Shown here piece by piece: positions 38,805 to 63,535 of a stretch of 64,000 bases of DNA. The stretch covers positions 466-64,465 of the forward strand of contig DAONGE010000002.1 in assembly GCA_035403965.1 (NCBI GenBank). The letters are read 5' to 3'. The position numbers and the translations under genes are program-made. Below the pieces are notes generated by a model. It worked only from the letters and a program-made list of their open reading frames with translations, was not told the origin of the DNA and did not search any database. This stretch comes from Candidatus Omnitrophota bacterium. Its GTDB lineage: Bacteria > Omnitrophota > Gorgyraeia > Tantalellales > Tantalellaceae. Position 1 is the stretch's first letter. Each line of letters opens with the position of its first letter.

Positions 38805-39479
38805 ATGCCAAAAGTGCTATTTATTGCATGCCACCCGGATGATGAGACGCTGGGATGCGGTGGGACAATATTAAAGCATAAAGCCCTTGGCGATGAGATA
38901 TATTGGGCTATTTTGACCAACATAGACGAAAATAACGGATGGCCGAAGGATAAGGTTCTATCGAGACAATGTGAGATATCTGCAGTGGCAAGAGCATACG
39001 GTTTTAAAAAAGTGTTCAAACTTGATTTTCCGACGACAAAGTTAGATGCAATACCCATGAATACCATTGTGTCGGCAATTTCAAACACATTAAATGAAAT
39101 AAAACCGGAAGTCATATATGTTCCTAATAAGAGTGATATTCATAGTGACCACAAAACCACTTTTGACGCAGTTATGAGCTGCACAAAAACTTTCAGGTTC
39201 CCATATATCAAACGGGTTTTAATGTATGAGTGTCTTTCAGAAACAGAATTTGCCCCGGCTATTTCTAATTTGGCTTTTACGCCGAATGTATTTGTAAATA
39301 TAAGTGCGTACGTGTCAGAAAAAATAAAGATAATGAACATGTACGAAGGCGAAATGGGTGCGTTTCCATTTCCAAGAAGTGCGGAAAACATTGAGGCATT
39401 AGCAAGGTATCGCGGGGCGACGGCGGGTTTTTGCGGCGCAGAAGCTTTTGTTCTTATAAAGGAAAGATGTGATGATTAA
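38805..39479 (+). CDS. PIG-L/LmbE-family N-acetyl-sugar deacetylase
   Basis: 224 aa; N-terminal HPDDE motif (ACHPDDETLGCGG) and downstream His/Asp metal ligands. Confidence 0.75.
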   Translation: MPKVLFIACHPDDETLGCGGTILKHKALGDEIYWAILTNIDENNGWPKDKVLSRQCEISAVARAYGFKKVFKLDFPTTKLDAIPMNTIVSAISNTLNEIKPEVIYVPNKSDIHSDHKTTFDAVMSCTKTFRFPYIKRVLMYECLSETEFAPAISNLAFTPNVFVNISAYVSEKIKIMNMYEGEMGAFPFPRSAENIEALARYRGATAGFCGAEAFVLIKERCDD

Positions 39480-44215: not shown

Positions 44216-44223
44216 GAGGAATC

Positions 44224-44988: not shown

Positions 44989-45214
44989 AAAGGATCTTGA
45001 TATTGCCATAAAAAAGATATTTGCGGAGACGTTTAACATCGCGGATGTCAGCGACGATGACTCTATAGAGACGATATCTTTGTGGGATTCTATGGGGCAT
45101 ATGGAGCTGATCTCCAGGATAGAAAACGATTTTAATGTTCGCATTGATCCGGAGGATATTATTAAACTAGTATCAGTAACGAGTATAAAAGAATTCTTGA
45201 GGGGGAAAGAATGA
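44966..45214 (+). CDS. Acyl/aminoacyl carrier protein (DltC/ACP-like)
   Basis: 82 aa; four-helix size; phosphopantetheine-attachment motif LWDSMGHMEL (DSx). Confidence 0.7.
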   Translation: MSMYTRNKKDLDIAIKKIFAETFNIADVSDDDSIETISLWDSMGHMELISRIENDFNVRIDPEDIIKLVSVTSIKEFLRGKE

Positions 45215-46692
45215 TTGGAACTTTTTATGAAAAGCTGATGGCCCCGTTTTTGAGATCTACCCGTATATTCTATAAGTATTTCGACGAGGAATATACATAT
45301 GGCCGGGCTTATTCCCTGATGAAGATAATAAATCATACGCTGAACCGTAATAATAAAAACCGTAAAAAGATAGTAGTATACGGGGGGAAAAGTTTTCCGG
45401 TATATTGCGCGATTTATAGCATTATATTGTCGGATAATGTGTGGATACCTATAACGCCGGGCATTCCGCCGGATAGACTTATGGCCATGATGGAGTTGCT
45501 TCATCCGGATATTTTTTTATATGAAGAGGAGATCCCTCAAGGGGTTGTCGAATCTGCGGGTAAAATCAAAATGGAAGTTATATCTTTGACTGATGTGGCG
45601 GAACGGAAAGAAAGTATGGATTTCGAAATGTGTAAATATTCCCCGAACGATTGGGCATATGTGATGTTCACTTCCGGGTCCACGGGTGTTCCTAAAGGCG
45701 TTCCGATGACCCATTTAAACTATATAAACTTCATAAATAATGCGATGGAGATATTACCTTTTCAAAAAGGTGAGATTTTTTCGGATTATCATGATTTTGC
45801 GTTTGATATTTCCATATTTTATATTTTCTGTGCGCCGCTTACCGAGGGTACTATTGCGCCGATAAGGAAAAAAGAAGAGCGCATGTTCCCGCTCAATCAC
45901 ATACAAAAGAACAAAATAACGGTATGGTCGTCGGTTCCGTCCGTAATAGCCTGCATACAGCGGCTCCGTCCCGCGGGCAAACTTGAAAACAGTATCAGGA
46001 TAATGTTTCTGTGCGGAGAGCCCTTCAGCCTGAGCATATTAAAATATTGCTATGAGAATTTAGATATCAAGGAAGTATATGATTTTTATGGTTTGACCGA
46101 AACCGGTGTTGAGAATTTTTACCATCATTGCTCTATAGACGATCTTGAACGCTTTAGGGAAAAGGGATTTGTCCCAATAGGCAGGCCATTGAAAGGGAAC
46201 GATATAAAGGTGACGGAGGAAAAAGAATTGCTTTTGAGCGGGTGCCAGGTGACGCCGGGATACTTAGGTAACATTGAACAGGGGCGTTTCGAGACAATAG
46301 AAGGGGATCGCTGGTATCACACCGGTGATATAGTTGAAAAATTTGAAGATGTTTATTTTTGTAAAGGGCGCATTGATTCCCAGGTGAAAATAAGCGGACA
46401 TAGGATAGAGCTGATGGATATTGAGGTGCATATAAAACAATTTCCCGGGATAAAAGAGGCGATATGTTTTGTGACCGAACAGACGATGGGTGTGAAACGG
46501 TTGGCATGTGCTGTAGAAACACAAGATCAGGCCGATACAGTTATTCCAGGGCTCGAAGGATGGCTTAGAGGCAAACTGCCGGAATATATGGTTCCCAAAG
46601 TGATACATCATATTAAGGCGATGCCTACTAATAATAACGGCAAGATAGACAGAAAAGCTATTCGGGAGATGTTTTCCCAAGGTGCGCGGTGA
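45211..46692 (+). CDS. AMP-dependent synthetase/ligase (adenylation enzyme, DltA/NRPS-A-domain-like) that loads the adjacent carrier protein
   Basis: 493 aa; core motifs YVMFTSGSTGVPKGV (A3), WYHTGD (A7), GRIDSQVKISGHRIEL (A8); start overlaps the ACP stop (ATGA). Confidence 0.85.
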   Translation: MIGTFYEKLMAPFLRSTRIFYKYFDEEYTYGRAYSLMKIINHTLNRNNKNRKKIVVYGGKSFPVYCAIYSIILSDNVWIPITPGIPPDRLMAMMELLHPDIFLYEEEIPQGVVESAGKIKMEVISLTDVAERKESMDFEMCKYSPNDWAYVMFTSGSTGVPKGVPMTHLNYINFINNAMEILPFQKGEIFSDYHDFAFDISIFYIFCAPLTEGTIAPIRKKEERMFPLNHIQKNKITVWSSVPSVIACIQRLRPAGKLENSIRIMFLCGEPFSLSILKYCYENLDIKEVYDFYGLTETGVENFYHHCSIDDLERFREKGFVPIGRPLKGNDIKVTEEKELLLSGCQVTPGYLGNIEQGRFETIEGDRWYHTGDIVEKFEDVYFCKGRIDSQVKISGHRIELMDIEVHIKQFPGIKEAICFVTEQTMGVKRLACAVETQDQADTVIPGLEGWLRGKLPEYMVPKVIHHIKAMPTNNNGKIDRKAIREMFSQGAR

Positions 46693-46696
46693 AATA

Positions 46697-50911: not shown

Positions 50912-51631
50912 ATGTTCCGGGGGAAAAAAATACTTGCAATTGTGCCGGCAAGGAGCGGAAGCAAAGGGTTGCCAAACAAGAATATCAAGCTATTCTGCGG
51001 GAAACCACTTATATGCTGGACGATATCCGAGGCCAAGCGTAGTAAATATATTGATGATGTGACCGTAAGTACGGACAGCCCGCGGATAGCGGAAATATCA
51101 AAAAAAGCCGGCGCAATAGTACCTTTTTTACGCCCGCCCGAATTAGCGACTGATACAGCGTCGTCTATGGACGTGGTGTTTCATGCGATTAGTGAGTTTG
51201 AGAAAATAAACGGGCGATATGAAATCGTATTGCTTTTACAACCGACGTCGCCTTTAAGAGTATCGGAAGATATAGATAACGCCGTGGAACTGCTTATTAA
51301 ACAAAAGGCAAAAGCCATAGTTTCGTTGACGGAAGCGTTGGTGAATCCTTCGTGGGTGAATGTATTGCCAGCAAATGGGTGCATTAAAGATTTTTTGCAC
51401 TGTAGTGTCATCAATAAACGGAGACAGGTACTGCCAAAGTACTTCCAGCTTAACGGAGCGGTGTTTCTTGGTTACGCTAAATATTTGAAAGGTACAGGCA
51501 CTTTTTATACTGCTAAGACATATGCGTACATAATGCCGCGGGAAAGATCGGTGGATATAGATGATATTTTTGATTTCAAACTGGCTGAAATAATCATGAG
51601 AGAAAGAATGAAAAATAAAAGGAGAAAGTGA
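50912..51631 (+). CDS. Acylneuraminate cytidylyltransferase-family protein (CMP-nonulosonic acid synthetase, NeuA/LegF-like)
   Basis: 239 aa; ILAIVPARSGSKGLPNKNI P-loop-like motif of the CMP-NeuAc synthetase family. Confidence 0.8.
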   Translation: MFRGKKILAIVPARSGSKGLPNKNIKLFCGKPLICWTISEAKRSKYIDDVTVSTDSPRIAEISKKAGAIVPFLRPPELATDTASSMDVVFHAISEFEKINGRYEIVLLLQPTSPLRVSEDIDNAVELLIKQKAKAIVSLTEALVNPSWVNVLPANGCIKDFLHCSVINKRRQVLPKYFQLNGAVFLGYAKYLKGTGTFYTAKTYAYIMPRERSVDIDDIFDFKLAEIIMRERMKNKRRK

Positions 51632-52608
51632 TGAAAGGTATTTTAAAAGGGAAAACGGTGCTTGTTACCGGCGGTACGGGATCGTTCGGACAAAAGTTCA
51701 CACAGACTGTTCTTGCGCAGCATGCGCCCAAGAAACTTATAATTTTCAGCAGGGATGAAATGAAACAGTATGAGATGGCCAAGAAGTTCAAAAATGAGAA
51801 CATTCGTTTTTTTATAGGAGATGTGCGGGATACGGAGAGATTGTACCGTGCTTTTAACGGTGTCGATGTGGTCGTTCACGCGGCTGCTATAAAAATAGTT
51901 CCGACAGCGGAATATAATCCGTTTGAGGCGGTAAAAACTAACGTGATCGGCGCGGAAAATGTTATAAACGCTGCGATAGATAACAAAGTGAAAAAAGTCA
52001 TAGCGTTAAGTACCGATAAAGCGGCCAATCCGATAAATCTTTACGGTGCAACGAAATTATGCGCTGAAAAGATGTTCGTAGCGGCTAATAACTATTCAAC
52101 TTTAAAAGGAACCAGATTCGCCGTTGTGAGGTATGGCAATGTTTTTGGGTCCAGAGGCAGTGTTGTACCGTTTTTTAAGGAATGCCGTAAAACCGGGGTT
52201 GTTCCTATCACCGACGAAAAAATGACGAGATTCTGGATCACATTAAAACAGGGTGTCGCCTTTGTGCTGGAATGTCTTGAGGAAATGGAAGGCGGAGAGA
52301 TCTTTATCCCAAAGATACCGAGCATGAGAGTTACGGATCTGGCTAAAGCCATATGCCCCGATTGTAAACAAAAATTCATCGGGATAAGGGCGGGAGAAAA
52401 ATTGCATGAAACCCTGGTTCCTAGTGATGAATGCATGAATACTCGGGAATATGCCACACGTTTTGTTATATATCCGTATATAGTGGAGCACAGCAAAAAA
52501 GACGGTGGGAAAATAATGGGACCGGAGTTTGAAGGATATCGCAGCGATAATAACGATAAATGGCTTACTGTAAAGCAGCTCGCTGTCATGGCGGAAGAGA
52601 GAGAATGA
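51631..52608 (+). CDS. pseB: UDP-N-acetylglucosamine 4,6-dehydratase (inverting) PseB/FlaA1
   Basis: 325 aa; KTVLVTGGTGSFGQKF start and overall CapD/FlaA1-like extended SDR pattern diagnostic of PseB. Confidence 0.85.
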   Translation: MKGILKGKTVLVTGGTGSFGQKFTQTVLAQHAPKKLIIFSRDEMKQYEMAKKFKNENIRFFIGDVRDTERLYRAFNGVDVVVHAAAIKIVPTAEYNPFEAVKTNVIGAENVINAAIDNKVKKVIALSTDKAANPINLYGATKLCAEKMFVAANNYSTLKGTRFAVVRYGNVFGSRGSVVPFFKECRKTGVVPITDEKMTRFWITLKQGVAFVLECLEEMEGGEIFIPKIPSMRVTDLAKAICPDCKQKFIGIRAGEKLHETLVPSDECMNTREYATRFVIYPYIVEHSKKDGGKIMGPEFEGYRSDNNDKWLTVKQLAVMAEERE

Positions 52609-52609: not shown

Positions 52610-53779
52610 ATGAAACGGATTCCGTACGGAAAACATAAGATAGAAGAAGACGATATTGCGTCGGTTGTACCGGTTCTGCGGGACGGCTGGATAACGCAGG
52701 GGCCTATGGTCGAAAAATTCGAAAAGGATCTTGCCGCGTATTGCGGCGCGAAATATGCCGTGGCCGTATCTAATGGGACCGCGGCTTTGCATCTTGCCCT
52801 TTTGGCGGCCGGTATAGGCAAAGGAGACGAGGTTATTACGACGCCTATAACTTTTCTTGCGACGCCGAATTCTGTATTGTATACGCAGGCTAAGCCGGTT
52901 TTTGCGGATATAAAGTCGTCTACCGTCAATATAGATCCTGACGATATCGAAAAGAAATTGACGAAAAGAACCGCGGCCATAATGCCGGTGCATTTTGCCG
53001 GACTCCCGTGTGCGATGGGGAAGATAAAAAATCTTGCAGGCAAAAAAAATATTGTAGTTATCGAAGATGCCTGTCACGCTCTGGGTGCCGGATATGTGTA
53101 TGCCGGAAAAAAAGAGAAAGTTGGGAGTTGTCGTCATTCCGACATGTGTGTTTTCAGTTTTCATCCGGTTAAGACCATAACCACCGGAGAAGGCGGGGCG
53201 ATAACTACAAATTCTGAAAAATTTTACGATAAAATGATGGCCCTGAGAAGTCATGGAAAATACAAAGATAAAAAAACGGCCGTAAAAGGGCCCTGGTATT
53301 ATGAAATGCGTGAATTGGGATATAACTACCGGATAACGGATATACAATGCGCGTTAGGGGTAAGTCAGCTTAAGAAAATTGATCGTTTTGTCTCTAAACG
53401 TAGAGAGGTGGCATCTTACTATGACGAAAGGTTTAGGGAAATAAGGGATCTGATAGAACTTCCGGATCAGGATCAAGGTGACTCGGTACATGCCAGGCAT
53501 TTGTATCTTTTGAGATTAAATCTCAAAAAACTGTCCTGTGGCAGAAAATACATATTTGAAGAGCTCGAGAGGAACGGCATAGGGGTGCAAGTGCATTATG
53601 CGCCGGTCTATAAACAGCCGTATTATCAGAAGAACGGTTATCGGGCTGTTCAATGTACGCAAGCCGAAAAATATTATGCCGGGGCGATATCGTTGCCGAT
53701 ATTTTACGATATAAGCAAAGAGGATATGACGTATGTGGCTGATACGGTTATAAAAGTGGTAAAAGCGGGATCAAAATGA
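52610..53779 (+). CDS. pseC: UDP-4-amino-4,6-dideoxy-N-acetyl-beta-L-altrosamine transaminase PseC
   Basis: 389 aa; IPYGKHKIEEDDI...GWITQGP N-terminus typical of PseC; DegT fold; immediately follows pseB. Confidence 0.85.
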   Translation: MKRIPYGKHKIEEDDIASVVPVLRDGWITQGPMVEKFEKDLAAYCGAKYAVAVSNGTAALHLALLAAGIGKGDEVITTPITFLATPNSVLYTQAKPVFADIKSSTVNIDPDDIEKKLTKRTAAIMPVHFAGLPCAMGKIKNLAGKKNIVVIEDACHALGAGYVYAGKKEKVGSCRHSDMCVFSFHPVKTITTGEGGAITTNSEKFYDKMMALRSHGKYKDKKTAVKGPWYYEMRELGYNYRITDIQCALGVSQLKKIDRFVSKRREVASYYDERFREIRDLIELPDQDQGDSVHARHLYLLRLNLKKLSCGRKYIFEELERNGIGVQVHYAPVYKQPYYQKNGYRAVQCTQAEKYYAGAISLPIFYDISKEDMTYVADTVIKVVKAGSK

Positions 53780-54696
53780 CCAAGAAAAAAGCGAAGGCTC
53801 CTTTTTTAACATTAGGAACGGCGCAGTTAGGGTTTGATTACGGCGTAGCCAACAAGTCTGGAGTCCCGGCGGAAAAAGAGGCATTGCGCATACTTGACGA
53901 AGCGTGGAAATGCGGGATACGCAGTTTCGATACAGCATCGGATTATGGGAGGAGCGAAAGGATCATAGGGGTTTTTATAAGGGAACGCGCCGTGAGTAAA
54001 GAGATTATAGTCGCTTCTAAGCTCCCAAGAGTAAAAGCTCCGACCGGAAGCTCCGAGGAAAAAATATACAAAATAGTCAAGAATCACATGGAAAGATCGT
54101 TGAAGGTGTTAGGTCTGGACAAAATGCCGTTGTATCTTATGCATAATGCGGCCGATATGACCTCTTACGGTGGAAAGGTATTTCGGAGCTTGATACGCCT
54201 CAAGGAGGAAGGATTGATAGGGACTGTTGGAGTGTCGATATATCATCCCTCGGAAGCGATAACGGCGCTGAAAAAAAAGGATATCGATGTGGTTCAACTG
54301 CCGATTAATTTGTTTGATCAGCGTTTTGTCAGGAAATCGCTTGTTAAAAAACTTTGTGATAGCGGGAAGAGTGTGTTTGCGAGAAGTGTATTTTTGCAGG
54401 GGCTGTTCTTCCTTGAGGAAAAGGAAGTTCCAAAAAAATTATTTCCGGCCGTGAAGTATTTAAGAAAACTGAGAGAGATGTCGCTTGCCGAAAAAATGGC
54501 GATTGATGATATCGCCATGCGTTTCGTTTTGTCCGTTCCAGGTGTTGCCAGTGTGATCGTAGGGGCGGAATCGGTGGCGCAGGTAAAAAGGAATGCCGCT
54601 ATGGGAGGGAAAGTTCTCTCTAGAAAAATCGGTAAAAAAATAACGGTCTGTTTCAAAAATGTACCACGCAAAATAATGCTTCCGTATATGTGGTGA
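53776..54696 (+). CDS. Aldo/keto reductase family oxidoreductase
   Basis: 306 aa; LGTAQLG..YG, FDTASDYG, AKR TIM-barrel signatures. Confidence 0.8.
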   Translation: MTKKKAKAPFLTLGTAQLGFDYGVANKSGVPAEKEALRILDEAWKCGIRSFDTASDYGRSERIIGVFIRERAVSKEIIVASKLPRVKAPTGSSEEKIYKIVKNHMERSLKVLGLDKMPLYLMHNAADMTSYGGKVFRSLIRLKEEGLIGTVGVSIYHPSEAITALKKKDIDVVQLPINLFDQRFVRKSLVKKLCDSGKSVFARSVFLQGLFFLEEKEVPKKLFPAVKYLRKLREMSLAEKMAIDDIAMRFVLSVPGVASVIVGAESVAQVKRNAAMGGKVLSRKIGKKITVCFKNVPRKIMLPYMW

Positions 54697-54709: not shown

Positions 54710-55498
54710 ATGACTATACAGGAATTGTTCGGGCTAAAAGGAAAAACGGCGGTTGTTACCGGCGGGACGGGGAATCTAGGCAGGTCGATGTGCGAAGTGT
54801 TGGCGGCGGCCGGGGCCAAAGTGATCGTAACCGGGAGGAATGAAAAAAAATGCCGCGAAGAAGCAGCCCGTCTTAACGGACTATACAATACGGATTGTTG
54901 CGGGTATAAGATGGATATCTCGGATATGAAAGACATAAAGAACGGCATGAAGAAAGCGGCCGGTAAAAAAGGCCGCATAGATATTCTTGTGAACAACGCG
55001 GTTTATTGCGAAATGGGAAATCCTGAAAGTATGACAGAAGAAGAATGGGCCTATGGGGTTGACGGCACGCTGAATTCTGCGTACAGATGTTTGAAGGCGG
55101 TGATCCCGTATATGGGTAATGGCTCAAAGATAGTTAATATATCGTCTATGTATGGAATGATTTCTCCGGACATGAGGATATACAGAGAGCATCCTGATTT
55201 TTTCAGCCCGCCGAATTACGGAGCGGCTAAAGCAGGGATAATTCAGCTTACAAAATATTTCGCAGTATATCTTGCCGCAAAGGGTATCGGGGTTAATTGT
55301 TTAACTCCGGGGTCATTCCCATCTAAAGAGGTCAGGAAGAGCAAAGGGTTTATAAAAGAACTGACAAAAAAGATCCCGATCGGAAGAGTCGGTGAACCGC
55401 ATGAACTCGGAGGTGCGGTTTTGTTCCTGTCTTCCGGGGCGTCTTCTTACGTTACAGGTCAGAATATTATAGTAGACGGCGGATGGACAATCTGGTGA
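54710..55498 (+). CDS. Short-chain dehydrogenase/reductase (SDR, classical)
   Basis: 262 aa; TGGTGNLG cofactor motif; NNAV; catalytic YGAAK. Confidence 0.85.
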   Translation: MTIQELFGLKGKTAVVTGGTGNLGRSMCEVLAAAGAKVIVTGRNEKKCREEAARLNGLYNTDCCGYKMDISDMKDIKNGMKKAAGKKGRIDILVNNAVYCEMGNPESMTEEEWAYGVDGTLNSAYRCLKAVIPYMGNGSKIVNISSMYGMISPDMRIYREHPDFFSPPNYGAAKAGIIQLTKYFAVYLAAKGIGVNCLTPGSFPSKEVRKSKGFIKELTKKIPIGRVGEPHELGGAVLFLSSGASSYVTGQNIIVDGGWTIW

Positions 55499-55508: not shown

Positions 55509-56231
55509 ATGATGGTAGGGGCTATAATACAGGCGCGTATTTCTTCGGAAAGACTTCCGGGAAAGGTCATGATGGATCTCCCGTACGGGACGGGTATTAC
55601 CGTTGTGGAGAATATAGTCTCGCGTATAAAAGGTGTTAAAAAAATAGAAAAAATAATACTTGCGACCACCGTACGTAAGGAAGACGATGCGCTAGAGAGG
55701 CTGTCTCGCAAATTGGGCATAAAATGTTTTAGAGGTGATAGGGATAATGTTTTGTCGCGTTTTATCGGGGCTTGTTCAAAATATGGCATAGGTACGGCGT
55801 TAAGACTTACAGCTGATAACCCGTGTATCGATCCGTCGGTTATAAAAAAGGTTCTGGATAATCATATAAGAAATACAGCTGAGTATACGTTGACCAGCGG
55901 GTATCCTCTTGGGACCAATATCGAAATAGTATCATTTGAAGCATTGAAAAAAGTAGAAAAAATGGCTTCCGACAAGTTTTCCCTGGAGCATGTGACGTCA
56001 TACATAAACGAACATCCGGATAGATTTAAAATTATAAAATTGAGCGCCGAAAAGCGTTTAAGGATGCCGCAGTTAAGATTTACTATGGATACGATGGCAG
56101 ATTATATATTTTTATGTTGTCTGTTCGGTCTCTCCGGGAAAAAAAATTTCGGGATAAAGGACAGTATAGATATTGTAAAGAAGAATAAGTATTTGACTAT
56201 GATAAATAAAGACATAAAACAACGAAGCTAA
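55509..56231 (+). CDS. pseF: Pseudaminic acid cytidylyltransferase PseF-like (SpsF/CMP-sugar synthetase family)
   Basis: 240 aa; GAIIQARISSERLPGKV N-terminal motif of PseF/SpsF-type cytidylyltransferases. Confidence 0.7.
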   Translation: MMVGAIIQARISSERLPGKVMMDLPYGTGITVVENIVSRIKGVKKIEKIILATTVRKEDDALERLSRKLGIKCFRGDRDNVLSRFIGACSKYGIGTALRLTADNPCIDPSVIKKVLDNHIRNTAEYTLTSGYPLGTNIEIVSFEALKKVEKMASDKFSLEHVTSYINEHPDRFKIIKLSAEKRLRMPQLRFTMDTMADYIFLCCLFGLSGKKNFGIKDSIDIVKKNKYLTMINKDIKQRS

Positions 56232-56243: not shown

Positions 56244-57230
56244 ATGGCGAAAAAAGTACTTATTATTACGGAAACGGGGACAAATATCGGATTGGGGCAC
56301 CTGTCAAGATGTTTTGGTTTATATGAAGCGCTTGAGGCCGTGGGTGCGGTGCCTGAGATAATACTGAAACTCGACGGCGCTTTTGAAATATCTTTTGAAG
56401 ACAAAAATATTAAAGTGCTCGACTGGTGGGAAGAGAATAATATAAACCGGATCGATAATAGCGGGTACGGGGCTGTGGTGCTTGATTCGTATAACGCCAC
56501 TCCTGGGATTTATGAGTATATGATGGGAGCCGACTTTCCGGTGTTTTTTGATGACATGGGATCGCGATATGAGAAAGGGACGGTGATAAACGGTGCCGTT
56601 AAAGCCGAGACATTGGATTATCCACAGAGGGGAAATGTCTCATATTTGCTCGGGACAAAATATCTTTGTTTGCGAAAAGTTTTTTGGGATATTGCGGACA
56701 AGAAAAACAAAAAGGATGTCGGTAATATTCTTGTGGCTTTAGGAGGCGGAGATCCACGGGGCATAACAAGGATTGTTTTGGAGGCAATCTCGGAAAATTT
56801 TCCTACGATCAGCAAAAATATCGTTCTTGGGAAAGGATCCGCAGGGTATGATGTTGAGAAATATGTTACTGGAAAAGACAAGGTGTTCCAATCCCTTTCC
56901 GGAACGGCTATGAAAAGGCTGGAAGAGAACGCGGATATATGTATCTGCGGCATGGGACAGACTTTGTATGAATGTGCATGCGTGGGTACCGGTGCGATAA
57001 GTATAGCGATGTCGGATAATCAGAGATATGACGTCGATAGGTGGCGGGATGTAGGATTTATGGAGTATGCCGGTATGTGGTCGGACGGGGATCTTACGGA
57101 AAAGTTGATCGGTAAGATAACCTTTCTTTTGGATAAAACAGAGCGAGAGCGAAGATCTTGCATCGGGAAAAAACTTGTGGACGGGCAAGGATCTTCCAGG
57201 GTCGCCGGATATATTGTCGAAAGAATATGA
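56244..57230 (+). CDS. pseG: UDP-2,4-diacetamido-2,4,6-trideoxy-beta-L-altropyranose hydrolase PseG-like
   Basis: 328 aa; VLIITETGTNIGLGHLSRC N-terminus (GT-B MurG-like, GxGHxxR) characteristic of PseG; lies between pseF and pseI. Confidence 0.65.
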   Translation: MAKKVLIITETGTNIGLGHLSRCFGLYEALEAVGAVPEIILKLDGAFEISFEDKNIKVLDWWEENNINRIDNSGYGAVVLDSYNATPGIYEYMMGADFPVFFDDMGSRYEKGTVINGAVKAETLDYPQRGNVSYLLGTKYLCLRKVFWDIADKKNKKDVGNILVALGGGDPRGITRIVLEAISENFPTISKNIVLGKGSAGYDVEKYVTGKDKVFQSLSGTAMKRLEENADICICGMGQTLYECACVGTGAISIAMSDNQRYDVDRWRDVGFMEYAGMWSDGDLTEKLIGKITFLLDKTERERRSCIGKKLVDGQGSSRVAGYIVERI

Positions 57231-57239: not shown

Positions 57240-58574
57240 ATGAAATATCAGGAAATGTTGGATAAAAAAATAGAAACGATGAGCATGGGCGAATTGTCGC
57301 AAAAAATAGAAAAGCCTCTTTTGAGTAGGCAGATCAAAAGGGTTTTTGAGAATTCTGTTTTTTATAGGGATAAATTCAAAAAAAACGGAATCAATAAAAA
57401 ATATTTTACTAGCGGGAAAATATCCATTCATGATCTGCCATTTACCGAAAAGGCCGAGATAATCGAGGATCAAAGAACAAATGCACCGTTTGGAAATTTG
57501 CTAGCCGTTCCGGCCGATAAAATTATAAGGATACACCGGACATCCGGATATTCCGGAAGGCCTGTTCTTATCGCGTTGACGGCTAACGATATAAAGGATA
57601 CGCATGAAGCCGGGGCGAGGATGTTCTGGTGTGCCGGAGTAAGGCCGGATGATATTGTTGTTCATTGTTTGAACTATTGTCTATGGATAGGAGGAATAAC
57701 CGATCATCTTTCTCTGGAAGCGGTTGGCGCTACGGTGATCCCTTATGGCGTGGGCAATACAAAAAAACTACTGGAACTTATGATACAACTGTCTCCGACG
57801 GCCATTTCATGTACGCCGTCATATTTGCGTAGGCTTGAACAAGTTTTGGCTGAAGAATTCAGGATGAAACCAAATGAATTGGGTATAAAGAAAGGCGTAT
57901 TCGGCGGTGAGGCCGGTATTCAAGATCCTGTCATAAGGAACAGTATAGAAAAAAAATGGGATATGCGTGCGATAGACGCAAATTATGGGGTTTCTGATGT
58001 TTTAAGCGCTTTTGGCTCGGAATGTGATGTACGTAACGGTCTTCACTACCATGCTCAGGGTATAGTACTTCCGGAACTTATTGATCCGGTAACCGGGGAA
58101 AAGCTTGAGATCAAAGCCGGGCAGACCGGTGAAATGGTATATACGAATCTGAAACGGGAGGCCCAGCCTCTTATCAGATTCAGAACGCGTGATACTGTGG
58201 AGATCGTGCATGTAGGAAAATGCCCATGCGGACGATCAGGTTTCAGATTCAAAGTTTTGGGACGAAGCGACGATATGCTGGTAGTGAAAGGGATAAATGT
58301 TTTTCCAGCGGCTATCCAGACGGTTTTGTTACGGTATCCGGAAGAACTGAACGGTGAATTTGAAATTGTCCTTTCCGGGAAACCTCCGTATGAGAGTCTT
58401 TCCGTCAAAGTTGAAATAAGAAAGGATATGAAACCGTGCGATGCCAGGCGCCTTAAGTGTAAAATAGAGAACGACATCAAAGAAGAACTTACCGTAAAGA
58501 CAGTCATTGAGCTTGTGCGGGAAAACAGCATTCCGAGAGAGGGAGATAAGGTAAAGCGTATCAGAAGAATTTAG
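57240..58574 (+). CDS. Phenylacetate-CoA ligase-like (PaaK/CapK/F390 synthetase family) adenylate-forming enzyme
   Basis: 444 aa; PaaK-type N-terminal domain and truncated ANL core (TSGYSGRPV P-loop analogue). Confidence 0.65.
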   Translation: MKYQEMLDKKIETMSMGELSQKIEKPLLSRQIKRVFENSVFYRDKFKKNGINKKYFTSGKISIHDLPFTEKAEIIEDQRTNAPFGNLLAVPADKIIRIHRTSGYSGRPVLIALTANDIKDTHEAGARMFWCAGVRPDDIVVHCLNYCLWIGGITDHLSLEAVGATVIPYGVGNTKKLLELMIQLSPTAISCTPSYLRRLEQVLAEEFRMKPNELGIKKGVFGGEAGIQDPVIRNSIEKKWDMRAIDANYGVSDVLSAFGSECDVRNGLHYHAQGIVLPELIDPVTGEKLEIKAGQTGEMVYTNLKREAQPLIRFRTRDTVEIVHVGKCPCGRSGFRFKVLGRSDDMLVVKGINVFPAAIQTVLLRYPEELNGEFEIVLSGKPPYESLSVKVEIRKDMKPCDARRLKCKIENDIKEELTVKTVIELVRENSIPREGDKVKRIRRI

Positions 58575-58594
58575 GTAAAGGCAAAGGGGATAAT

Positions 58595-59503
58595 ATGAGG
58601 AGAAAAAATTCAGTTAAAGCGTTAAAGATCGCAACATTCCTTAAGGCCAAGCTTTTCGGCAAGGACGTTGATATAAAAAAAGTAGCGTCGATAGGCGACT
58701 TGGAAGAAGGGGCATTGTGCTTTGTACGTAAATTCGATGAGCGTTATGTAGATGCGCTGAAAAAGTGCGGCAAATGTTTTGTTGTCTGTACCGATGAATA
58801 TAAAGGGAAAATAAATTGCTCCTATGTGGTTTCGGATGATCCCGGACTTGATTTTTCCAGGGCTGTAAAGAAATTTTTTTACGAACAAGATAAAAAAGGG
58901 GTAATAAATAAAAAAGCGGATATTGATAAAAAGGCCAGTATCGGTAAAGGCGTGGGTATTGGGGCGTACAGCGTGATCGGTCCGGAAGTCAAGATCGGCG
59001 ACGACACTGTGATACACGAAAATGTGGTTATCAAAGGCCGGGTAGTTATAGGTAAAGGGTGCACAATAAAGTCCGGTGCGGTTATCGGAGAAGAGGGTTT
59101 TGGTTTTGAATATGATGAATTCGGGTCGCCCGAGCATTTTACGCACATCGGAGGGATACAGATAGGAGACAATGTCTGGATAGGGGCGGGATCGACGATA
59201 GAGATAGCGCATATAGATAGTACTGTGATAAAGGATAATGTAAAAATAGACGATCTGGTACAGGTGGGACATAATTGTCTGCTCGGTAAAAACAGCATAG
59301 TTGCCGCCGGTACTATTATCTGTGGCGCGGTTACTGTCGGGGAAAATTGCTGGGTAGCTCCGAATTGCAGTATAAAAGAGAAGCTAAAAATAGGTGACGG
59401 ATCTCTTGTAGGATTGGGCTCGGTCGTTATAAACGATGTTCAGGAAAAAACGGTAGTCGCCGGAAATCCGGCTAAGATCCTGAGAACAATAGATAAAAGG
59501 TGA
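58595..59503 (+). CDS. LpxD-like hexapeptide-repeat N-acyltransferase (acyl-ACP-dependent family)
   Basis: 302 aa; LpxD-like N-terminal domain then a long left-handed beta-helix of [LIV]GxxxxI repeats. Confidence 0.7.
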   Translation: MRRKNSVKALKIATFLKAKLFGKDVDIKKVASIGDLEEGALCFVRKFDERYVDALKKCGKCFVVCTDEYKGKINCSYVVSDDPGLDFSRAVKKFFYEQDKKGVINKKADIDKKASIGKGVGIGAYSVIGPEVKIGDDTVIHENVVIKGRVVIGKGCTIKSGAVIGEEGFGFEYDEFGSPEHFTHIGGIQIGDNVWIGAGSTIEIAHIDSTVIKDNVKIDDLVQVGHNCLLGKNSIVAAGTIICGAVTVGENCWVAPNCSIKEKLKIGDGSLVGLGSVVINDVQEKTVVAGNPAKILRTIDKR

Positions 59504-59507
59504 TATT

Positions 59508-60632
59508 ATGCAGAAAAAAACGCAGGGAAAAGAAATTATATCGGATTTTTTAAAAGAAAAAATGAGCAAAATCGCCGATAAATACGGCAGGGACTCTAGG
59601 GAATATAAGGGCTTGGCATTACAGTATGTGTTCGATCCGCGGGAAGAAATAAGCGATTATAAGACGGAGCGGCGCAGACATTACGAGGCGGATATCGAGA
59701 AGGACTCAGAGGGTCACGTCCTTAAAGGCGTTGAGCGACTGTATCGGAGGGCGGCGGTGATCGAGCTTACGACCGCCTGTTTTGCGCGATGCAGGTGGTG
59801 TCTTAGGGCGAATTATAATCCTTTCACGCTCTCGGAAGATGAGATAGTTCTTGCCGCTAAGTATTTTGGCAATAAGGCAAACCGGGAAAATCTTCGGGAA
59901 ATACTGATCACCGGCGGGGATCCTCTGGCGGCGCCGGGGCTTCTGAATATCGCGATAAACGCGATAATGAAACATGCGCCCAATATAGAAATAATCCGAA
60001 TAGGAACGCGGCTCCCTGTACATAAACCATCGGCTGTTTTCAGCGATGATACCAAAAAAGTATTACGTAAAAGAGAAGGGATCAGGCTTGAGATCGGAAC
60101 GCAAATAAATCATCCGATTGAATTGTTTAAAGAATCTCAGGATGCGTATAAGTATCTGTTGGATTCTGTATCGAAGATATACAATCAGCAGGTTCTTCTT
60201 AAGGACGTTAATGATGATATTGATACGTTAGCGGCGCTTTATGACAGTCTGCGCCGGCTTAATATCGAGTCTCACTATATGTTCCATTGCGTTCCGATAA
60301 GGGGGATGCGCCATCACAGAACTACTATCGCAAAGGGGCTGGAATTAATAAAAAAGCTTACGTCTTCAGGTTGTATTTCAGGACGGAGTAAACCGATGTA
60401 TACGGCCATGACCGATATCGGCAAGATCACTTTTTATGAGAATACTATAATAGAGAAAAGAGCGGATCTTGTTTTGCTGCAAAGTTCTTATAAAAAAGAA
60501 GAAAGATTGAAGTGGAATCCGCTTTGGAAAATGCCGGAGTCTTGTGAAGTGGATGATGGCGGGTACTTGAGGGTATGGTACAAAGACGCTGAAATGCACA
60601 ATAAAGGATGGAGAGCGCCATATGCGCTTTGA
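59508..60632 (+). CDS. KamA-family radical SAM aminomutase (lysine/glutamate 2,3-aminomutase-like)
   Basis: 374 aa; CFARCRWC (Cx3Cx2C in the KamA-type context), TGGDPL motif, KamA-like length. Confidence 0.7.
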   Translation: MQKKTQGKEIISDFLKEKMSKIADKYGRDSREYKGLALQYVFDPREEISDYKTERRRHYEADIEKDSEGHVLKGVERLYRRAAVIELTTACFARCRWCLRANYNPFTLSEDEIVLAAKYFGNKANRENLREILITGGDPLAAPGLLNIAINAIMKHAPNIEIIRIGTRLPVHKPSAVFSDDTKKVLRKREGIRLEIGTQINHPIELFKESQDAYKYLLDSVSKIYNQQVLLKDVNDDIDTLAALYDSLRRLNIESHYMFHCVPIRGMRHHRTTIAKGLELIKKLTSSGCISGRSKPMYTAMTDIGKITFYENTIIEKRADLVLLQSSYKKEERLKWNPLWKMPESCEVDDGGYLRVWYKDAEMHNKGWRAPYAL

Positions 60633-60642
60633 GGGGAAAGGA

Positions 60643-61695
60643 ATGAAAAACTTTCGTGTTGGGAATAAGTCTGTCGGGGAAGACGCCCCAGCTTTTATTA
60701 TTGCCGAAATATCCGCTAATCACGGACAGGATTTTGACAGGGCCGTTCGGACGATCGCGGCGGCCGCCGAGTGTGGGGTAGATGCGGTAAAATTCCAGAC
60801 ATATACGCCGGACACGATCACGATGAAGTCTAATGATAAAAGTTTTAGGATAGATGAAAAACTTTGGAGAGGGAAGACGTTGTATGATCTTTACAAAGAG
60901 GCCTATACGCCGTGGCATTGGTTCAAAAAACTGAAACGTGCGGCGGAAGACCACGGATTGGTATTTTTCTCCACGGCTTTTGACAGAACCGCTGTGGATC
61001 TTTTGGAAGAGATCGATGTCCCGGCGCATAAAATTGCCTCGTTCGAGCTGGTGGACATACCGCTCATAGAATACGCGGCGGGTACCGGGAAACCGTTATT
61101 CATGTCGACAGGGATGGCATCGATACGTGAAGTGTCAGATGCCGTGCAGGCGGCCAAAAGGTCCGGCACCAAAAAGATATGTTTATTGAAATGCGTGAGC
61201 GGATATCCGGCCAGGCCGGAGGATTTCAATCTCAACACGATACCTGACATGGGGAAGCGGTTCGGCGCTGTGACGGGTTTATCCGACCACAGTCTAGGGA
61301 CAGTCGTTTCCGTGGCCAGTATACCTTTGGGCGCGAAGGTGGTAGAGAAGCATTTTACATTGTCGAGGAAGCTGAGAACGCCAGATAATTTCTTTTCGCT
61401 TGAACCGGCCGAGATGAAGAGTCTTGTGGAAAATGTCCGTTCCGTTGAGGCAAGTCTTGGCCGTGTTAAATATGGCTGTTCGTCCGAAGAAGAAAAGAAG
61501 AACATAAAATATAGAAGATCTCTTTTTGCCTCAGCGGACATAAAAAAAGGAGAGGCCTTTACAGAAGAGAATGTAAGATCCATTAGACCGGCAGGAGGTC
61601 TTGCACCCAAATATATGCGTAGTGTGATCGGAAAAAAAACTCGAATAGAGATCAAAAAAGGCACCCCGATAACATGGGGCGCTGTACAAAGGTAG
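60643..61695 (+). CDS. pseI: Pseudaminic acid synthase PseI (NeuB family)
   Basis: 350 aa from ATG 60643 (GAGGGGAAAGGA RBS); FIIAEISANHGQDFDRA...GVDAVKFQTY; C-terminal SAF domain; sits in the pseB/C/F/G cluster. Confidence 0.8.
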   Translation: MKNFRVGNKSVGEDAPAFIIAEISANHGQDFDRAVRTIAAAAECGVDAVKFQTYTPDTITMKSNDKSFRIDEKLWRGKTLYDLYKEAYTPWHWFKKLKRAAEDHGLVFFSTAFDRTAVDLLEEIDVPAHKIASFELVDIPLIEYAAGTGKPLFMSTGMASIREVSDAVQAAKRSGTKKICLLKCVSGYPARPEDFNLNTIPDMGKRFGAVTGLSDHSLGTVVSVASIPLGAKVVEKHFTLSRKLRTPDNFFSLEPAEMKSLVENVRSVEASLGRVKYGCSSEEEKKNIKYRRSLFASADIKKGEAFTEENVRSIRPAGGLAPKYMRSVIGKKTRIEIKKGTPITWGAVQR

Positions 61696-61699: not shown

Positions 61700-63535
61700 A
61701 TGGAGAAAGCTCCGGATGAACGAGTAAAAAAGACCCTGATCTTACAGGCGCCCGGGCGGGGGATCCTCCCGGGAGAGGGCCCGATATATCTGGGGCCATG
61801 GTGTTGCTTGGACAGGGACCGTGCGCTTGCGGGATCCGGTGCGATAACGGTATCTATACCCGGATATACTACGGATGATCTTTTGAAGAACGCGGAAATA
61901 TGCGAAAAGGCATACACCCATATGCTCGGCGTCCTGACGTCAACGCTTAATGGCATGCACGGTGTGAAAAAGAGTGCTGCATACTGGTCTGTTATGCTCA
62001 ATCCGTGGCTTATGTTCCACATCAATATGATGCATGAACGGTACGTCAGGATACGGGCGGCTCTGGAGAAGTACGGGAAAGATCTTTTTTTTGATCCTCT
62101 CCCGGAAATAAAATACTGTGCACCGGCCGATAACTATGAGTTCCTTGATACACGCGTGGGCAGCGAGGATTACAATCTGTGTTTATCGTCCGTTATCCTT
62201 TCTTTGCTGATCCCCGGCAGCGCAAAGGAGATCGCTGCGGACGATAAAGGTAACCCCGGGATCAGGGGTAAAAGCGCGGCAGTTTCGTTAAGATCCATGA
62301 TAAAAAAAACCGTGTTGACATTACAGCAAAGACTGCGTGGACAAAGCGATATCGCGATGATAGATATGTTACACATGGATTTCGGGGATATGACGAAGTT
62401 CAATACGCTCATGGGGGGCGTATGTTCGCTTGACCATATTTTCGGATCGGGGCGGCGCGCCATGCCGGCGCACGATATAAAGATGCGGTCCTGTCTTGAA
62501 TTCAAGGATCGGGATGAAGACGTTTTTACGGAGTCAGTCAAAAAGAGCATCAGGTTCACTATGCCGCGTTGTTGCGTGGAAGGGTATGCGGATACGGCCG
62601 GCCAGGTATCCAACATACGTCGTAAGCCGCCCAAGATGATACTTTCGGATACTGGCTGGTACTTTAACGAAATTTTCAAGTGTTACGCCGCCGAGATGCA
62701 GGAAAAGGGAGTAAAGCTCGTTGGCGTGCAGCACGGTGGGAATTACGGGTTCAGCCTTTATCACAGTGTGTTCGCTTTCGAAAAAGAGAATAAATATAAA
62801 TTCATAAGCTGGGGATGGGGGCAGGGCAGAGAGAACACCAAAGACCTGCCGGACCCGGCCCTTTCCGCTATCGGGCAGGTATCGGCGAAGAAGAACGGTA
62901 CGGTGCTTTATGTGTCGTTCAATGATCATGTGTATCCGTACTCTTTGTCCGGGTACCCGGGCGCCGACGGCATGGAAAAATATTTTGACGATCAAATGTT
63001 TTTTCTGGGGATGCTCGGGGATGATATGAAAAGGAAAGTGCGTTATCGTGCCGCCCGCTGTGATCACGGGAGGGGGATCCTCGCAAGGGTAAAGGCAGTG
63101 TCAGACCTTATCGGTTTTGCCGGAGAAGAGAAATGCACCCGCCTGATGGGCCGCGCGAGTATAGTCGTTGTGGATCACCCGATGACCGCGTTCATAGAAG
63201 CGCTGGTGATGAATGTGCCGCTACTTCTTTTTTGGGATAGGACGCTATGGAGGATGAACGAAGAAGCGAAAAGATATTTTGACGGGTTTAGGAAAGCCGG
63301 TGTTCTTTTTGACGGCCCTGCCGCGGCGGCCTCGCAGCTTAAAGAAGTATATGACGATCCCGCGTCATGGTGGGAAAGGAAAGAGATACAGGAACACAGA
63401 GAGAGGTTCGTTAATAGATACGGCCAGAATAACAGGGAATGGGCGGCCATATGGGTCCGGGAACTGAAAGCGCTGTGCCCGGGCACGGACGCAAACAGAG
63501 GAGGGACAGGATTTGTCGGTAATAAAATTTTTTAG
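61700..63535 (+). CDS. Large hypothetical protein (611 aa); candidate nonulosonic-acid/glycosyl transferase
   Basis: No motif I can assign by eye; soluble; terminal position in the Pse module directly before an ABC exporter. Confidence 0.5.
   Translation: MEKAPDERVKKTLILQAPGRGILPGEGPIYLGPWCCLDRDRALAGSGAITVSIPGYTTDDLLKNAEICEKAYTHMLGVLTSTLNGMHGVKKSAAYWSVMLNPWLMFHINMMHERYVRIRAALEKYGKDLFFDPLPEIKYCAPADNYEFLDTRVGSEDYNLCLSSVILSLLIPGSAKEIAADDKGNPGIRGKSAAVSLRSMIKKTVLTLQQRLRGQSDIAMIDMLHMDFGDMTKFNTLMGGVCSLDHIFGSGRRAMPAHDIKMRSCLEFKDRDEDVFTESVKKSIRFTMPRCCVEGYADTAGQVSNIRRKPPKMILSDTGWYFNEIFKCYAAEMQEKGVKLVGVQHGGNYGFSLYHSVFAFEKENKYKFISWGWGQGRENTKDLPDPALSAIGQVSAKKNGTVLYVSFNDHVYPYSLSGYPGADGMEKYFDDQMFFLGMLGDDMKRKVRYRAARCDHGRGILARVKAVSDLIGFAGEEKCTRLMGRASIVVVDHPMTAFIEALVMNVPLLLFWDRTLWRMNEEAKRYFDGFRKAGVLFDGPAAAASQLKEVYDDPASWWERKEIQEHRERFVNRYGQNNREWAAIWVRELKALCPGTDANRGGTGFVGNKIF

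Follow-up and report, generated by a model that had tools for sequence, protein, structure and literature searches.

Pseudaminic (Pse) and legionaminic (Leg) acids are nonulosonic acids which coat flagella, capsules and lipopolysaccharide (LPS). Their N-acyl groups set antigenicity, charge and recognition by phages or lectins. In Campylobacter and Helicobacter, the canonical Pse pathway comprises PseB, PseC, the GNAT enzyme PseH, PseG, PseI and PseF. Sugar N-acyltransferases also occur among the left-handed β-helix (LbH) proteins. PglD, NeuD, VioB and QdtC belong to this group, as does AntD of anthrose synthesis, an example of the members with non-acetyl acyl-CoA donors. These trimeric β-helix enzymes transfer the acyl group of a CoA thioester to the 4-amino (or 3-amino) group of a nucleotide sugar. 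The PLP/radical-SAM aminomutases also act in known pairings: EpmB works with EpmA, and KamA/AblA with the acetyltransferase AblB. In lysine 2,3-aminomutase, Asp293 and Asp330 bind the ε-ammonium group of the substrate.

Variant nonulosonic acids such as 3-hydroxybutanoyl-Pse, N-methylglutamyl-Leg and Leg5Ac7AcAla bear non-acetyl acyl groups, aminoacyl groups included, at N5 or N7, which is the type of modification proposed below. To our knowledge, the genes for most non-acetyl Pse/Leg substituents are not known, a radical SAM aminomutase has been reported in none of these variant systems, and a β-aminoacyl substituent has been described on no nonulosonic acid. Leg5Ac7AcAla of Vibrio vulnificus, cited in PMC7371886, is a nonulosonic acid with an amino-acid N-substituent.

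The window analyzed here is a stretch of 64,000 nucleotides from a Candidatus Omnitrophota bacterium, and all coordinates refer to it. It harbors a Pse module on the plus strand. The first step is assigned to PseB, the inverting UDP-GlcNAc 4,6-dehydratase (51628..52608; TIGR03589, 501.3 bits, cut-off 407.75). The aminotransferase PseC (52610..53779; TIGR03588, 488.4 bits, cut-off 423.5) makes the acceptor amine, UDP-4-amino-4,6-dideoxy-β-L-AltNAc. Two accessory genes follow: an aldo/keto reductase (53776..54696; PF00248, E 4.4e-36), homologues of which also lie near PseF in loci L052 and L066, and a FabG-like short-chain dehydrogenase which reaches no NCBIfam cut-off (54710..55498; PF13561, E 6e-50). 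A CMP-sugar cytidylyltransferase (55509..56231; PF02348, E 2.4e-27) presumably fills the PseF role; a second cytidylyltransferase at 50912-51631 scores 169.8 bits with the PseF model TIGR03584, below the cut-off of 205.7. The UDP-sugar hydrolase is PseG-like and divergent (56244..57230), with TIGR03590 as its sole match (104.8 bits, below 153.55). PseI, the pseudaminic acid synthase, is found at 60622..61695 (TIGR03586, 455.8 bits, cut-off 340.25) and precedes a LIC12162-family transferase which is a candidate nonulosonic acid transferase (61700..63535; TIGR04331, 330.2 bits, cut-off 225). PseB, PseC and PseI, all above their equivalog cut-offs and encoded by the same operon, identify the module as one for pseudaminic acid. 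With its PseG-like hydrolase and cytidylyltransferase, it shares the logic of the canonical pathway.

In contrast to the canonical pathway, no PseH (TIGR03585/GNAT) was found among the scanned ORFs of the window, four large ORFs (14116-18582, 32258-33910) lying outside the scan. The sole GNAT-like ORF among those scanned encodes 288 residues at 46682-47548 and gives a sub-threshold match. Instead, three genes lie between the weak PseG upstream and the strong PseI downstream, all of them real ORFs on the plus strand: a PaaK-family adenylate-forming ligase (57240..58574; 444 aa), a short LpxD-like LbH N-acyltransferase (58595..59503; 302 aa) and a KamA-family PLP/radical-SAM enzyme (59508..60632; 374 aa). 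The initial annotation had proposed that an LbH enzyme takes over from PseH, and the gene content agrees with this. The gaps between the PseG-like, PaaK-like, LbH and KamA-like genes are 9, 20 and 4 nt, and the end of the KamA-like ORF overlaps the start of PseI by 11 nt; we therefore consider the trio operonic. It had also been described as inserted between pseG and pseI. This holds as gene order only, since the GC content of the trio resembles that of neighboring genes and a Planctomycetia MAG (L007) has the identical order PseF-PseG-PaaK-LbH-KamA-PseI.

The three family names given in the initial annotation stand as homology, on the basis of profile, PDB and fold matches. The KamA-like protein matches KamA (PDB 2A5H) by sequence (E 1e-27) and by fold (E 5.6e-20), and KamA was its sole close match in the fold search. 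It shares with KamA/AblA and EpmB the fold, the iron–sulfur motif CxxxCxxC (C91/C95/C98), the PLP lysine (K306, corresponding to K337 of 2A5H) and the α-carboxylate Arg; R100 and the SAM-binding GGD (G136-G137-D138) are retained. The PLP lysine and SAM-binding residues, whose loss would have spoken against an aminomutase, are thus in place. Across the KamA-like alignment, C125/C129/C132, R134, G171-D172, R198, Q258 and K337 are invariant in 29 of 29 family members, as is the whole GGD motif. However, identity to KamA/AblA and EpmB is only 22-25%, and the C-terminal Cys cluster of these enzymes is missing. The protein lies below every NCBIfam KamA cut-off: the general model TIGR00238 gives 118.9 bits against 199.2, and the equivalogs give 140.5 against 600 (Arg), 123.3 against 650 (Glu), 121.8 against 525 (Lys) and 107.8 against 369 (EpmB).

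Further differences concern the distal end of the substrate pocket. The Asp293/Asp330 pair of KamA/AblA and EpmB is replaced by I/V and M in the KamA-like protein. All 29 of 29 family members have I, V, L, C or A at position 293 and M or L at position 330, whereas the lysine-type references (2A5H, AblA, EpmB, AblA-like-2 and a Deinococcus protein) all retain D293 and D/E330. Because both aspartates which would hold the lysine amine are hydrophobic across the family, lysine is not the substrate, and arginine is ruled out on the same grounds. To judge from these residues, the substrate is probably a neutral amino acid with a side chain that is probably small or hydrophobic. We propose that the family is a new subfamily of PLP/radical-SAM enzymes with a hydrophobic distal pocket and a candidate amino acid 2,3-aminomutase. 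Family-specific changes at R112, R116 and Y287 may alter cofactor binding, and the reaction could then be something other than a 2,3-amino shift. As in the EpmB/EpmA system, the gene has that of an ATP-dependent enzyme as its partner, which in our proposal attaches the product to an amine. The target proposed here is nevertheless a nucleotide sugar, whereas the KamA/AblA and EpmB systems lead to an osmolyte or EF-P.

The LbH protein resembles LpxD in architecture. Its AF2 model (pLDDT 94.7) has LpxD as top Foldseek matches (TMq 0.79-0.86), N-terminal domain included. This uridine-binding domain is matched by PF04613 with E 3.4e-5, below the gathering score, and the model aligns with LpxD over the full length. 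The protein is 32% identical to E. coli LpxD, and H226 aligns with the catalytic His239 of that enzyme. The C-terminal half also aligns with the NeuD/PglB/VioB model TIGR03570 (117.7 bits). Its trimeric β-helix relatives PglD and QdtC differ in that the N-terminal domain and overall similarity of the window protein are LpxD-type. In contrast to LpxD, the protein has one coil fewer and no C-terminal helices: it terminates 10 residues past the last helix-turn motif, the model ends in β strands, and the alignment leaves about 30 residues at the C-terminus of E. coli LpxD unmatched. This helical extension we take to be the ACP-docking element (structures 4IHF, 4IHG and 4IHH). The best 120 homologues are all 261-320 aa long and so leave no room for ACP-recognition helices. 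The donor is probably acyl-CoA, unlike that of LpxD.

The PaaK-like ligase has both the N-terminal domain of the PaaK fold family and the PF14535 C-terminal domain with its Lys. PF14535 and PF00501 are matched, and PDB entries 4R1L (222 bits over the full length), 2Y4O and 6HDW, a 2-hydroxyisobutyryl-CoA synthetase, align over the full length, C-terminal Lys included. A bona fide phenylacetate-CoA ligase was considered and rejected: TIGR02155 gives 270.7 bits (E 1.7e-80) against a cut-off of 646.3, and no paa genes lie nearby.

Synteny was studied in 80 species-level relatives from more than 10 phyla. PaaK and LbH lie within 4 kb of KamA on the same strand in 28 loci, a PaaK-like homologue adjoins KamA in 34, and a carboxylate-activating enzyme (PaaK-like, DltA-like or ATP-grasp) stands beside it in 54. 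Nonulosonic acid pathway genes are present in the KamA flanks of 38 of the 80 loci. PaaK, LbH and KamA thus form a conserved cassette, often beside Pse/Leg synthases, of which we found no published description. As the cassette recurs in many uncultured bacteria, it probably decorates a sugar of the cell surface with an unusual group derived from an amino acid. In three Thaumarchaeota loci, the place of the PaaK-like gene beside KamA and the same LbH is taken by the gene for an ADP-forming acyl-CoA synthetase, a protein which carries CoA-binding domains. This non-orthologous replacement of the ligase points to a CoA thioester donor.

We interpret the trio as a self-contained ‘make, activate, transfer’ cassette which would replace PseH, a reading which we consider about evenly poised between right and wrong. 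The KamA-like enzyme, with SAM, [4Fe-4S] and PLP, would move the α-amino group of a free neutral amino acid to C3, giving a β-amino acid. The PaaK-like ligase would adenylate this product and convert it to a CoA thioester. In the LbH enzyme, the LpxD-type N-terminal domain would bind the UDP-sugar, and the conserved His226 would serve to transfer the acyl group to the 4-amine of the UDP-4-amino-4,6-dideoxy-β-L-AltNAc made by PseB and PseC, with an acyl-CoA rather than an acylated carrier protein as donor. This N4 corresponds to N7 of Pse. An LbH enzyme in the place of PseH, together with its own ligase and an enzyme resembling aminomutases, implies a non-acetyl group on N7. PseG, PseI and the cytidylyltransferase would then yield CMP-Pse5Ac7(β-aminoacyl), which would be zwitterionic because of its free amine, for use in a surface polysaccharide. 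Among the points against this model, the catalytic His is missing from about 14 of the LbH copies linked to the cassette, and not all PaaK-family members make CoA thioesters.

Other readings differ in the donor or in the role of the partners. Delivery from a carrier protein, the initial proposal, would have an acyl-ACP-dependent LbH acylate N4 with a group carried by the ACP at 44966-45214 and loaded by the PaaK-like ligase or by the DltA-like adenylase at 45211-46692 (DltA model, 227 bits, below 476). This plus-strand pair (44966..46692) belongs to a Leg module in the same gene array 12 kb upstream of the cassette. The nearest solved LbH relatives, LpxD and then LpxA, are all acyl-ACP users, which also weighs against the preferred CoA-based transfer. 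Moreover, the KamA product clearly can reach a carrier protein elsewhere: 11 loci have ACP ORFs directly beside KamA, all with a DltA-like adenylase replacing PaaK and LbH. We nevertheless regard carrier delivery as quite unlikely and do not retain it. The LbH subfamily lacks the docking helices, ACP was not detected in any of the 28 PaaK+LbH loci, and archaea pair the same LbH with a CoA-binding ligase. The proposed link to the upstream pair fares no better. The window adenylase shares only 26-31% identity with the KamA-partner adenylases, against 36-59% within that group, and its A4 motif is FDISIFY against FDPS[ILV]FD. Both features argue that the pair is not orthologous to the KamA partners; followed by its own gene for the 288-residue GNAT-like protein, it is probably a separate acylation system. 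Slightly less probable still is an acetyl-CoA-dependent LbH which simply substitutes for PseH, the PaaK-like and KamA-like enzymes performing other chemistry, such as a different radical reaction on the sugar or its side chain, or making a separate metabolite. Sugar N-acetyltransferases of the LbH type are common, short homologues of the LbH enzyme exist without PaaK or KamA (e.g. in an Acetomicrobium-type context), and the window contains many other radical SAM genes. However, the trio is kept as a same-strand group in 28 species-level genomes from many phyla, KamA keeps another acid-activating enzyme beside it where PaaK and LbH are missing, and the PLP lysine and α-carboxylate Arg are invariant.

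The acceptor may also differ. The acyl group could go to the hexose N2 (nonulosonate N5) after LmbE-type de-N-acetylation, or to a Leg-pathway intermediate, while N4 of the Pse precursor would be acetylated by the NeuD-type enzyme at 38146-38793 or by the 288-residue GNAT-like protein. In about 9-12 loci, a deacetylase of the LmbE type is encoded next to the cassette. In several loci of the Leg type, PaaK-LbH-KamA is followed by NeuD-LegI-NeuC, so that an N4 acetyltransferase is present besides LbH. Such neighbors suggest that the cassette may frequently act on N5, the other amine, once it has been deacetylated. The Leg module of the window itself holds the NeuD-type acetyltransferase and an LmbE deacetylase, so that cross-talk with the cassette is possible. 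These two genes, however, lie between LegC and LegI, 19-20 kb upstream, whereas the cassette of the window, like that of L007, has PseG and PseI as its neighbors and belongs to a module without PseH; for the window, we consider this acceptor unlikely. Scarcely credible is a second bona fide LpxD located beside Pse genes by chance. The NCBI name of the protein, UDP-3-O-(3-hydroxymyristoyl)glucosamine N-acyltransferase, and the subfamily model NF002060 (219.7 bits, above the cut-off of 207) agree with it, and an LptD-like gene in the window indicates that the organism probably has LPS. Yet the score with the equivalog TIGR01853 is 212.1 bits where 242.5 are required, the protein lacks the C-terminal domain and one coil, the KamA and PaaK partners are conserved, and no lpxA, fabZ or lpxB was found near the gene. 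Orthologues occur in three Thaumarchaeota genomes and a homologue in Patescibacteria, groups without lipid A. The sugar-operon position and the thaumarchaeal orthologues argue that this is not a lipid A enzyme. Overall, the initial interpretation was right about the families, the missing PseH, the KamA residues and the distinction from LpxD; carrier delivery and the link to the upstream pair were not borne out.

A wider reading of the CoA-dependent cassette is more tentative, and we place it somewhat short of even. The new PLP/radical-SAM 2,3-aminomutase subfamily would act on a neutral amino acid. The β-aminoacyl groups which it supplies would go into zwitterionic nonulosonic acids of a new class, and in actinomycetes the enzyme would feed small peptide natural products. 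Three interchangeable activation/transfer systems would serve the subfamily: PaaK with LbH, an ADP-forming CoA ligase with LbH, and a DltA-like adenylase with ACP and an AAC(3)-like transferase. The cassette offers a concrete three-enzyme route to a new sugar substituent and points to a new class of substrate for a KamA-type enzyme. Several hundred database proteins called ‘LpxD’ or ‘lysine 2,3-aminomutase’ probably carry the wrong name. Relatives are encoded by at least 575 species-level genomes, SAR11 and ammonia-oxidizing Thaumarchaeota included. Since relatives are located in surface-glycan islands of SAR11 and Nitrosopumilus, this chemistry may shape the cell surfaces of some marine microbes that rank among the most abundant.

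The cassette consists of three forward-strand genes: a PaaK-like ligase (57240-58574, 444 aa), a short LpxD-like left-handed β-helix acyltransferase (LbH; ACYLTRANSFERASE, 58595-59503, 302 aa) and a KamA-like radical SAM protein (59508-60632, 374 aa). The initial annotation had the positions exactly right, and profile searches agree with its family assignments at the level of homology. Spacings around these ORFs are 9, 20 and 4 nt, and the KamA-like ORF runs 11 nt into the next gene. The PseG upstream is divergent, its sole profile match being below the cut-off at 104.8 bits. Downstream, a clear PseI (455.8 bits) is followed by a LIC12162-family transferase. The same gene string includes, further upstream, PseB (501 bits), PseC (488 bits), an aldo/keto reductase, a FabG-like dehydrogenase and a cytidylyltransferase, and the whole Pse module spans 51.6-63.5 kb. 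As first noted from the sequence, PseH appears to be missing: the window ORFs scanned, a set which excludes four large ones (14116-18582 and 32258-33910), include none for a GNAT of the PseH type. Public databases list an identical KamA-like protein as 'radical SAM protein [Candidatus Omnitrophota bacterium]'; the contig is present in several metagenome assemblies.

The surroundings are those of a surface-polysaccharide locus of about 45 kb. Housekeeping genes occupy 1-14 kb (hrcA-grpE-dnaK-dnaJ, accD, GGDEF proteins and an LptD-like protein). The polysaccharide locus begins at 19-34 kb with a GDP-mannose dehydratase, aminotransferases, glycosyltransferases, and Wzy-like and PMT-like proteins. 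A legionaminic-type module follows at 36-51 kb, with LegB, LegC, a NeuD-type acetyltransferase, an LmbE-type deacetylase, a NeuB/LegI synthase, NeuC, a PtmE-like nucleotidyltransferase and a cytidylyltransferase. It is interspersed with B12-radical-SAM enzymes, a methyltransferase, an ACP, a DltA-like adenylase and a 288-aa GNAT-like protein. Besides the KamA-like gene of the cassette, the radical SAM genes of the window thus include three in this Leg part (34333-35793, 40497-42326 and 48725-49810), two of the B12-binding HpnJ/PhpK-like methyltransferase type and one of the SPASM/twitch type. The same part also encodes a SAM methyltransferase (44203-44988), a C45-like protein (43466-44215) and an unassigned 380-aa protein (42323-43465), which suggests that the legionaminic-type sugar is heavily tailored by uncharacterised enzymes. 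The window carries two CMP-sugar cytidylyltransferase genes; the copy at 50912-51631 scores higher with the PseF model (169.8 bits, under the cut-off) than the Pse-module copy at 55509-56231.

The cassette is real and conserved. A scan at one genome per species yielded at least 575 genomes with a KamA-like relative, and the best 80 (42-65% identity) were compared, with synteny determined by tblastn. These 80 span Acidobacteriota, Planctomycetota, Hydrogenedentota, Elusimicrobiota, Bacteroidota, Desulfobacterota, Alpha- and Gammaproteobacteria (including SAR11), Actinomycetota and Thaumarchaeota. A PaaK-like gene is present in 34 of the 80 loci; in 28, both PaaK-like and LbH genes are found no more than 4 kb from KamA and in the same orientation, usually in the order PaaK-LbH-KamA. 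Nonulosonate pathway genes flank 38 of the 80, and a Pse or Leg/Neu synthase 23. A Planctomycetia locus (L007) repeats the window's order, PseF-PseG-PaaK-LbH-KamA-PseI, and in L011 the trio immediately precedes a NeuB-type synthase. An apparent LbH-KamA fusion in L011 proved to be two separate ORFs 3 nt apart. A plasmid search returned only distant KamA relatives (≤33% identity), which served as outgroups.

Other loci combine the KamA-like gene with different partners. A DltA-like adenylase stands beside it in 14 loci without PaaK and LbH, eight of them with an AAC(3)-type N-acyltransferase; several also carry an ACP and DUF4910, as exemplified by L052 of SAR11. In this locus, a 682-aa cytidylyltransferase fused to a class-III aminotransferase (7938-9986) is encoded directly upstream of the KamA-like gene, and DUF4910/DUF2172 and TauD-family genes come after the adenylase and ACP. 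In total, an acid-activating enzyme neighbours KamA in 54 of the 80 loci, as would be expected of a KamA product that is a carboxylic (amino) acid and has to be activated before its attachment. A PhyH-like (phytanoyl-CoA dioxygenase family) Fe/2OG oxygenase, absent in the window, is encoded beside KamA or close to it in nine loci of various phyla (L044, 14377-15195; L023, L031, L037, L043, L059, L064, L066 and L079). It might hydroxylate an acyl-CoA or an amino acid.

The KamA-like protein matches lysine 2,3-aminomutase (2A5H) by sequence (E 1e-27) and by fold (E 5.6e-20 versus 1.5e-6 for the next radical SAM fold), and is 25% identical to E. coli EpmB. It scores far under the cut-off of every curated KamA-family model; comparison with glutamate and arginine aminomutases was by HMM scores. 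An alignment set 29 members of the family (bacterial, SAR11, Nitrosopumilus and Streptomyces) against six references: 2A5H, an annotated AblA, EpmB, an AblA-like-2 protein, a Deinococcus protein and an unassigned Bradyrhizobium KamA-family protein. The initial annotation had made its reading depend on an intact PLP lysine and SAM-binding residues, both of which are present. All 29 members keep the PLP lysine K337, the cluster cysteines and G171-D172 (2A5H numbering), together with R198, Q258, N266-D267, Y288, H300-R302-T303 and R134, the α-carboxylate residue. D293 and D330, which hold the ε-amine of lysine, are replaced throughout, the former by I/V/L/C/A in all 29 and the latter by M in 28 and L in one. 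Five of the six references retain D293 and D/E330; the Bradyrhizobium protein keeps D293 and has Cys at 330. Further family-specific changes are R112 to L, R116 to T/V, Y287 to H, Y290 to F and Q291 to H. By these residue patterns, the KamA-like enzymes form a distinct subfamily whose predicted substrate is not basic. Since the distal pocket is filled and hydrophobic, the substrate side chain is probably neutral, and small or hydrophobic.

The PaaK-like ORF matches TIGR02155 (E 1.7e-80), contains an AMP-binding domain and a PaaK-type C-terminal domain, and aligns over its full length with PDB 4R1L, 2Y4O and 6HDW. Its close relatives are CoA ligases for small acids.

The identity of LbH requires more discussion, as the initial annotation had raised the alternative that it is a true LpxD merely co-located with the cassette. 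Profile and PDB sequence matches identify an LpxD-like hexapeptide-repeat protein, 32% identical to E. coli LpxD, with H226 aligned to the catalytic His239. Its AlphaFold model (30 homologues, pLDDT 94.7) resembles LpxD chains most closely, also in the N-terminal nucleotide-binding domain (TMq 0.79-0.86), and LpxA next. Nevertheless, LbH lacks one 18-residue coil and the final ~30 residues of E. coli LpxD in the alignment, and its modelled C-terminus consists of β-strands. In the LpxD-ACP complexes (4IHF/4IHG/4IHH), the ~30 residues that LbH lacks make up the ACP-recognition helices. LbH falls below the LpxD equivalog cut-off (212 versus 242.5) and passes a looser subfamily model, hence its LpxD name at NCBI. 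All of the 120 best homologues are of the short form (261-320 aa), and the C-terminal half aligns to the end of the NeuD/PglB/VioB sugar acetyltransferase model. Orthologues also adjoin the KamA-like gene in three genomes of Thaumarchaeota, which are not known to make lipid A. Taken together, these features argue against a co-located LpxD and for an LpxD-shaped, putative nucleotide-sugar N-acyltransferase. About 14 cassette-linked copies have S/G/A/N/Q/C at the catalytic His226 position (L012, L013, L014, L016, L018, L019, L024, L026, L030, L038, L040, L042, L053 and L068); in L013, L014, L018, L026 and L042 they stand in tandem with a His-bearing copy, and the window copy keeps its His. An Acetomicrobium-type homologue has a gene context without PaaK and KamA, and so did not lead to a cultured organism carrying the complete cassette.

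The acyl donor was initially proposed to be a carrier protein, with the upstream ACP/adenylase pair as partner of the cassette. A phmmer search with four ACP queries against all small ORFs of 85 loci detected ACPs in 11 loci of the DltA type, where the distance to KamA is often 1-85 bp, and in none of the 28 PaaK+LbH loci. The lack of ACP-docking helices in LbH, the small-acid CoA ligases related to the PaaK-like protein, and the Thaumarchaeota, where an ADP-forming acyl-CoA synthetase with CoA-binding domains adjoins the same LbH in place of the PaaK-like enzyme, all point to a CoA thioester. Adenylases adjacent to KamA resemble one another (36-59% mutual identity, A4 motif TFDPS[ILV]FD) and make up a single group. 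The window adenylase is only 26-31% identical to them, with the motif FAFDISIFY, which rules it out as their orthologue and leaves little probability that one KamA feeds both the Leg and Pse modules. The 288-aa protein shows no homology to the AAC(3)-type transferase of SAR11-type loci. For these reasons, we regard the ACP/adenylase pair as an acylation system in its own right that belongs to the Leg module. The ACP (82 aa), adenylase (493 aa) and weakly GNAT-like protein at 44966-47548 likely constitute that cluster's own aminoacylation module; an LmbE-type deacetylase (38805-39479) belongs to the same cluster. It is still reasonable to suppose that the future N7 of Pse bears an acyl group of a β-amino or otherwise unusual kind; carrier-protein delivery and a link to the upstream pair find no support.

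Gene content, residue conservation and co-inheritance suggest a four-step route, to which we give roughly even chances. The KamA-like enzyme would convert a neutral amino acid to its β-isomer, the PaaK-like ligase would form the adenylate and then the CoA thioester, and LbH would use this thioester to acylate the PseC product at N4. PseG, PseI and a cytidylyltransferase would then yield CMP-Pse5Ac7(β-aminoacyl). The absence of PseH favours N4 as the acceptor in the window. In many genomes, the cassette may instead re-acylate N5 after deacetylation, because about a dozen loci have an LmbE-type deacetylase directly beside it, and a NeuD-type acetyltransferase is often retained next to it in loci of the Leg type.

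A similar logic is found in EpmB/EpmA, where an aminomutase is followed by ATP-dependent attachment to an amine, and in LbH sugar N-acyltransferases using unusual acyl-CoAs. Aminoacylated nonulosonates are known, such as Leg5Ac7AcAla in Vibrio vulnificus (cited in PMC7371886). Within an incomplete coverage of the literature, we found no link of a radical SAM/KamA-type enzyme or PaaK-type ligase to nonulosonic acid synthesis. Searches for aminomutases with pseudaminic, legionaminic, glycosylation island or O-antigen cluster gave only irrelevant matches, e.g. glutamate-1-semialdehyde aminomutase, and neither the SugarBase preprint nor the Vibrionaceae nab paper mentions the PaaK-LbH-KamA cassette.

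Public names deserve caution. The short LbH (P0121 and homologues) is called 'UDP-3-O-(3-hydroxymyristoyl)glucosamine N-acyltransferase', a patescibacterial homologue bears the LpxD name at JGI, and the orthologues at thaumarchaeal loci are unannotated. KamA-like proteins (P0001 and homologues) are often 'lysine 2,3-aminomutase' at JGI. For these subfamilies, neither name is likely to be correct, and the LpxD-like transferase looks systematically mis-annotated.

The cassette is a variant of the N-acyl diversification of nonulosonic acids, and by its residues the aminomutase looks like a KamA-type enzyme with a new substrate class. In seven Streptomyces genomes (including L045, L056, L063, L070, L071 and L074), where PaaK and LbH are missing, KamA of the same subfamily is followed by a PGM1-type ATP-grasp peptide ligase and an MFS exporter. 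In Actinomadura (L057), the genes around KamA include those for NRPS condensation/adenylation, P450 and luciferase-like proteins. The β-amino acid may thus also feed small natural products in these genera, which are cultured organisms where the KamA-like enzyme could be studied.
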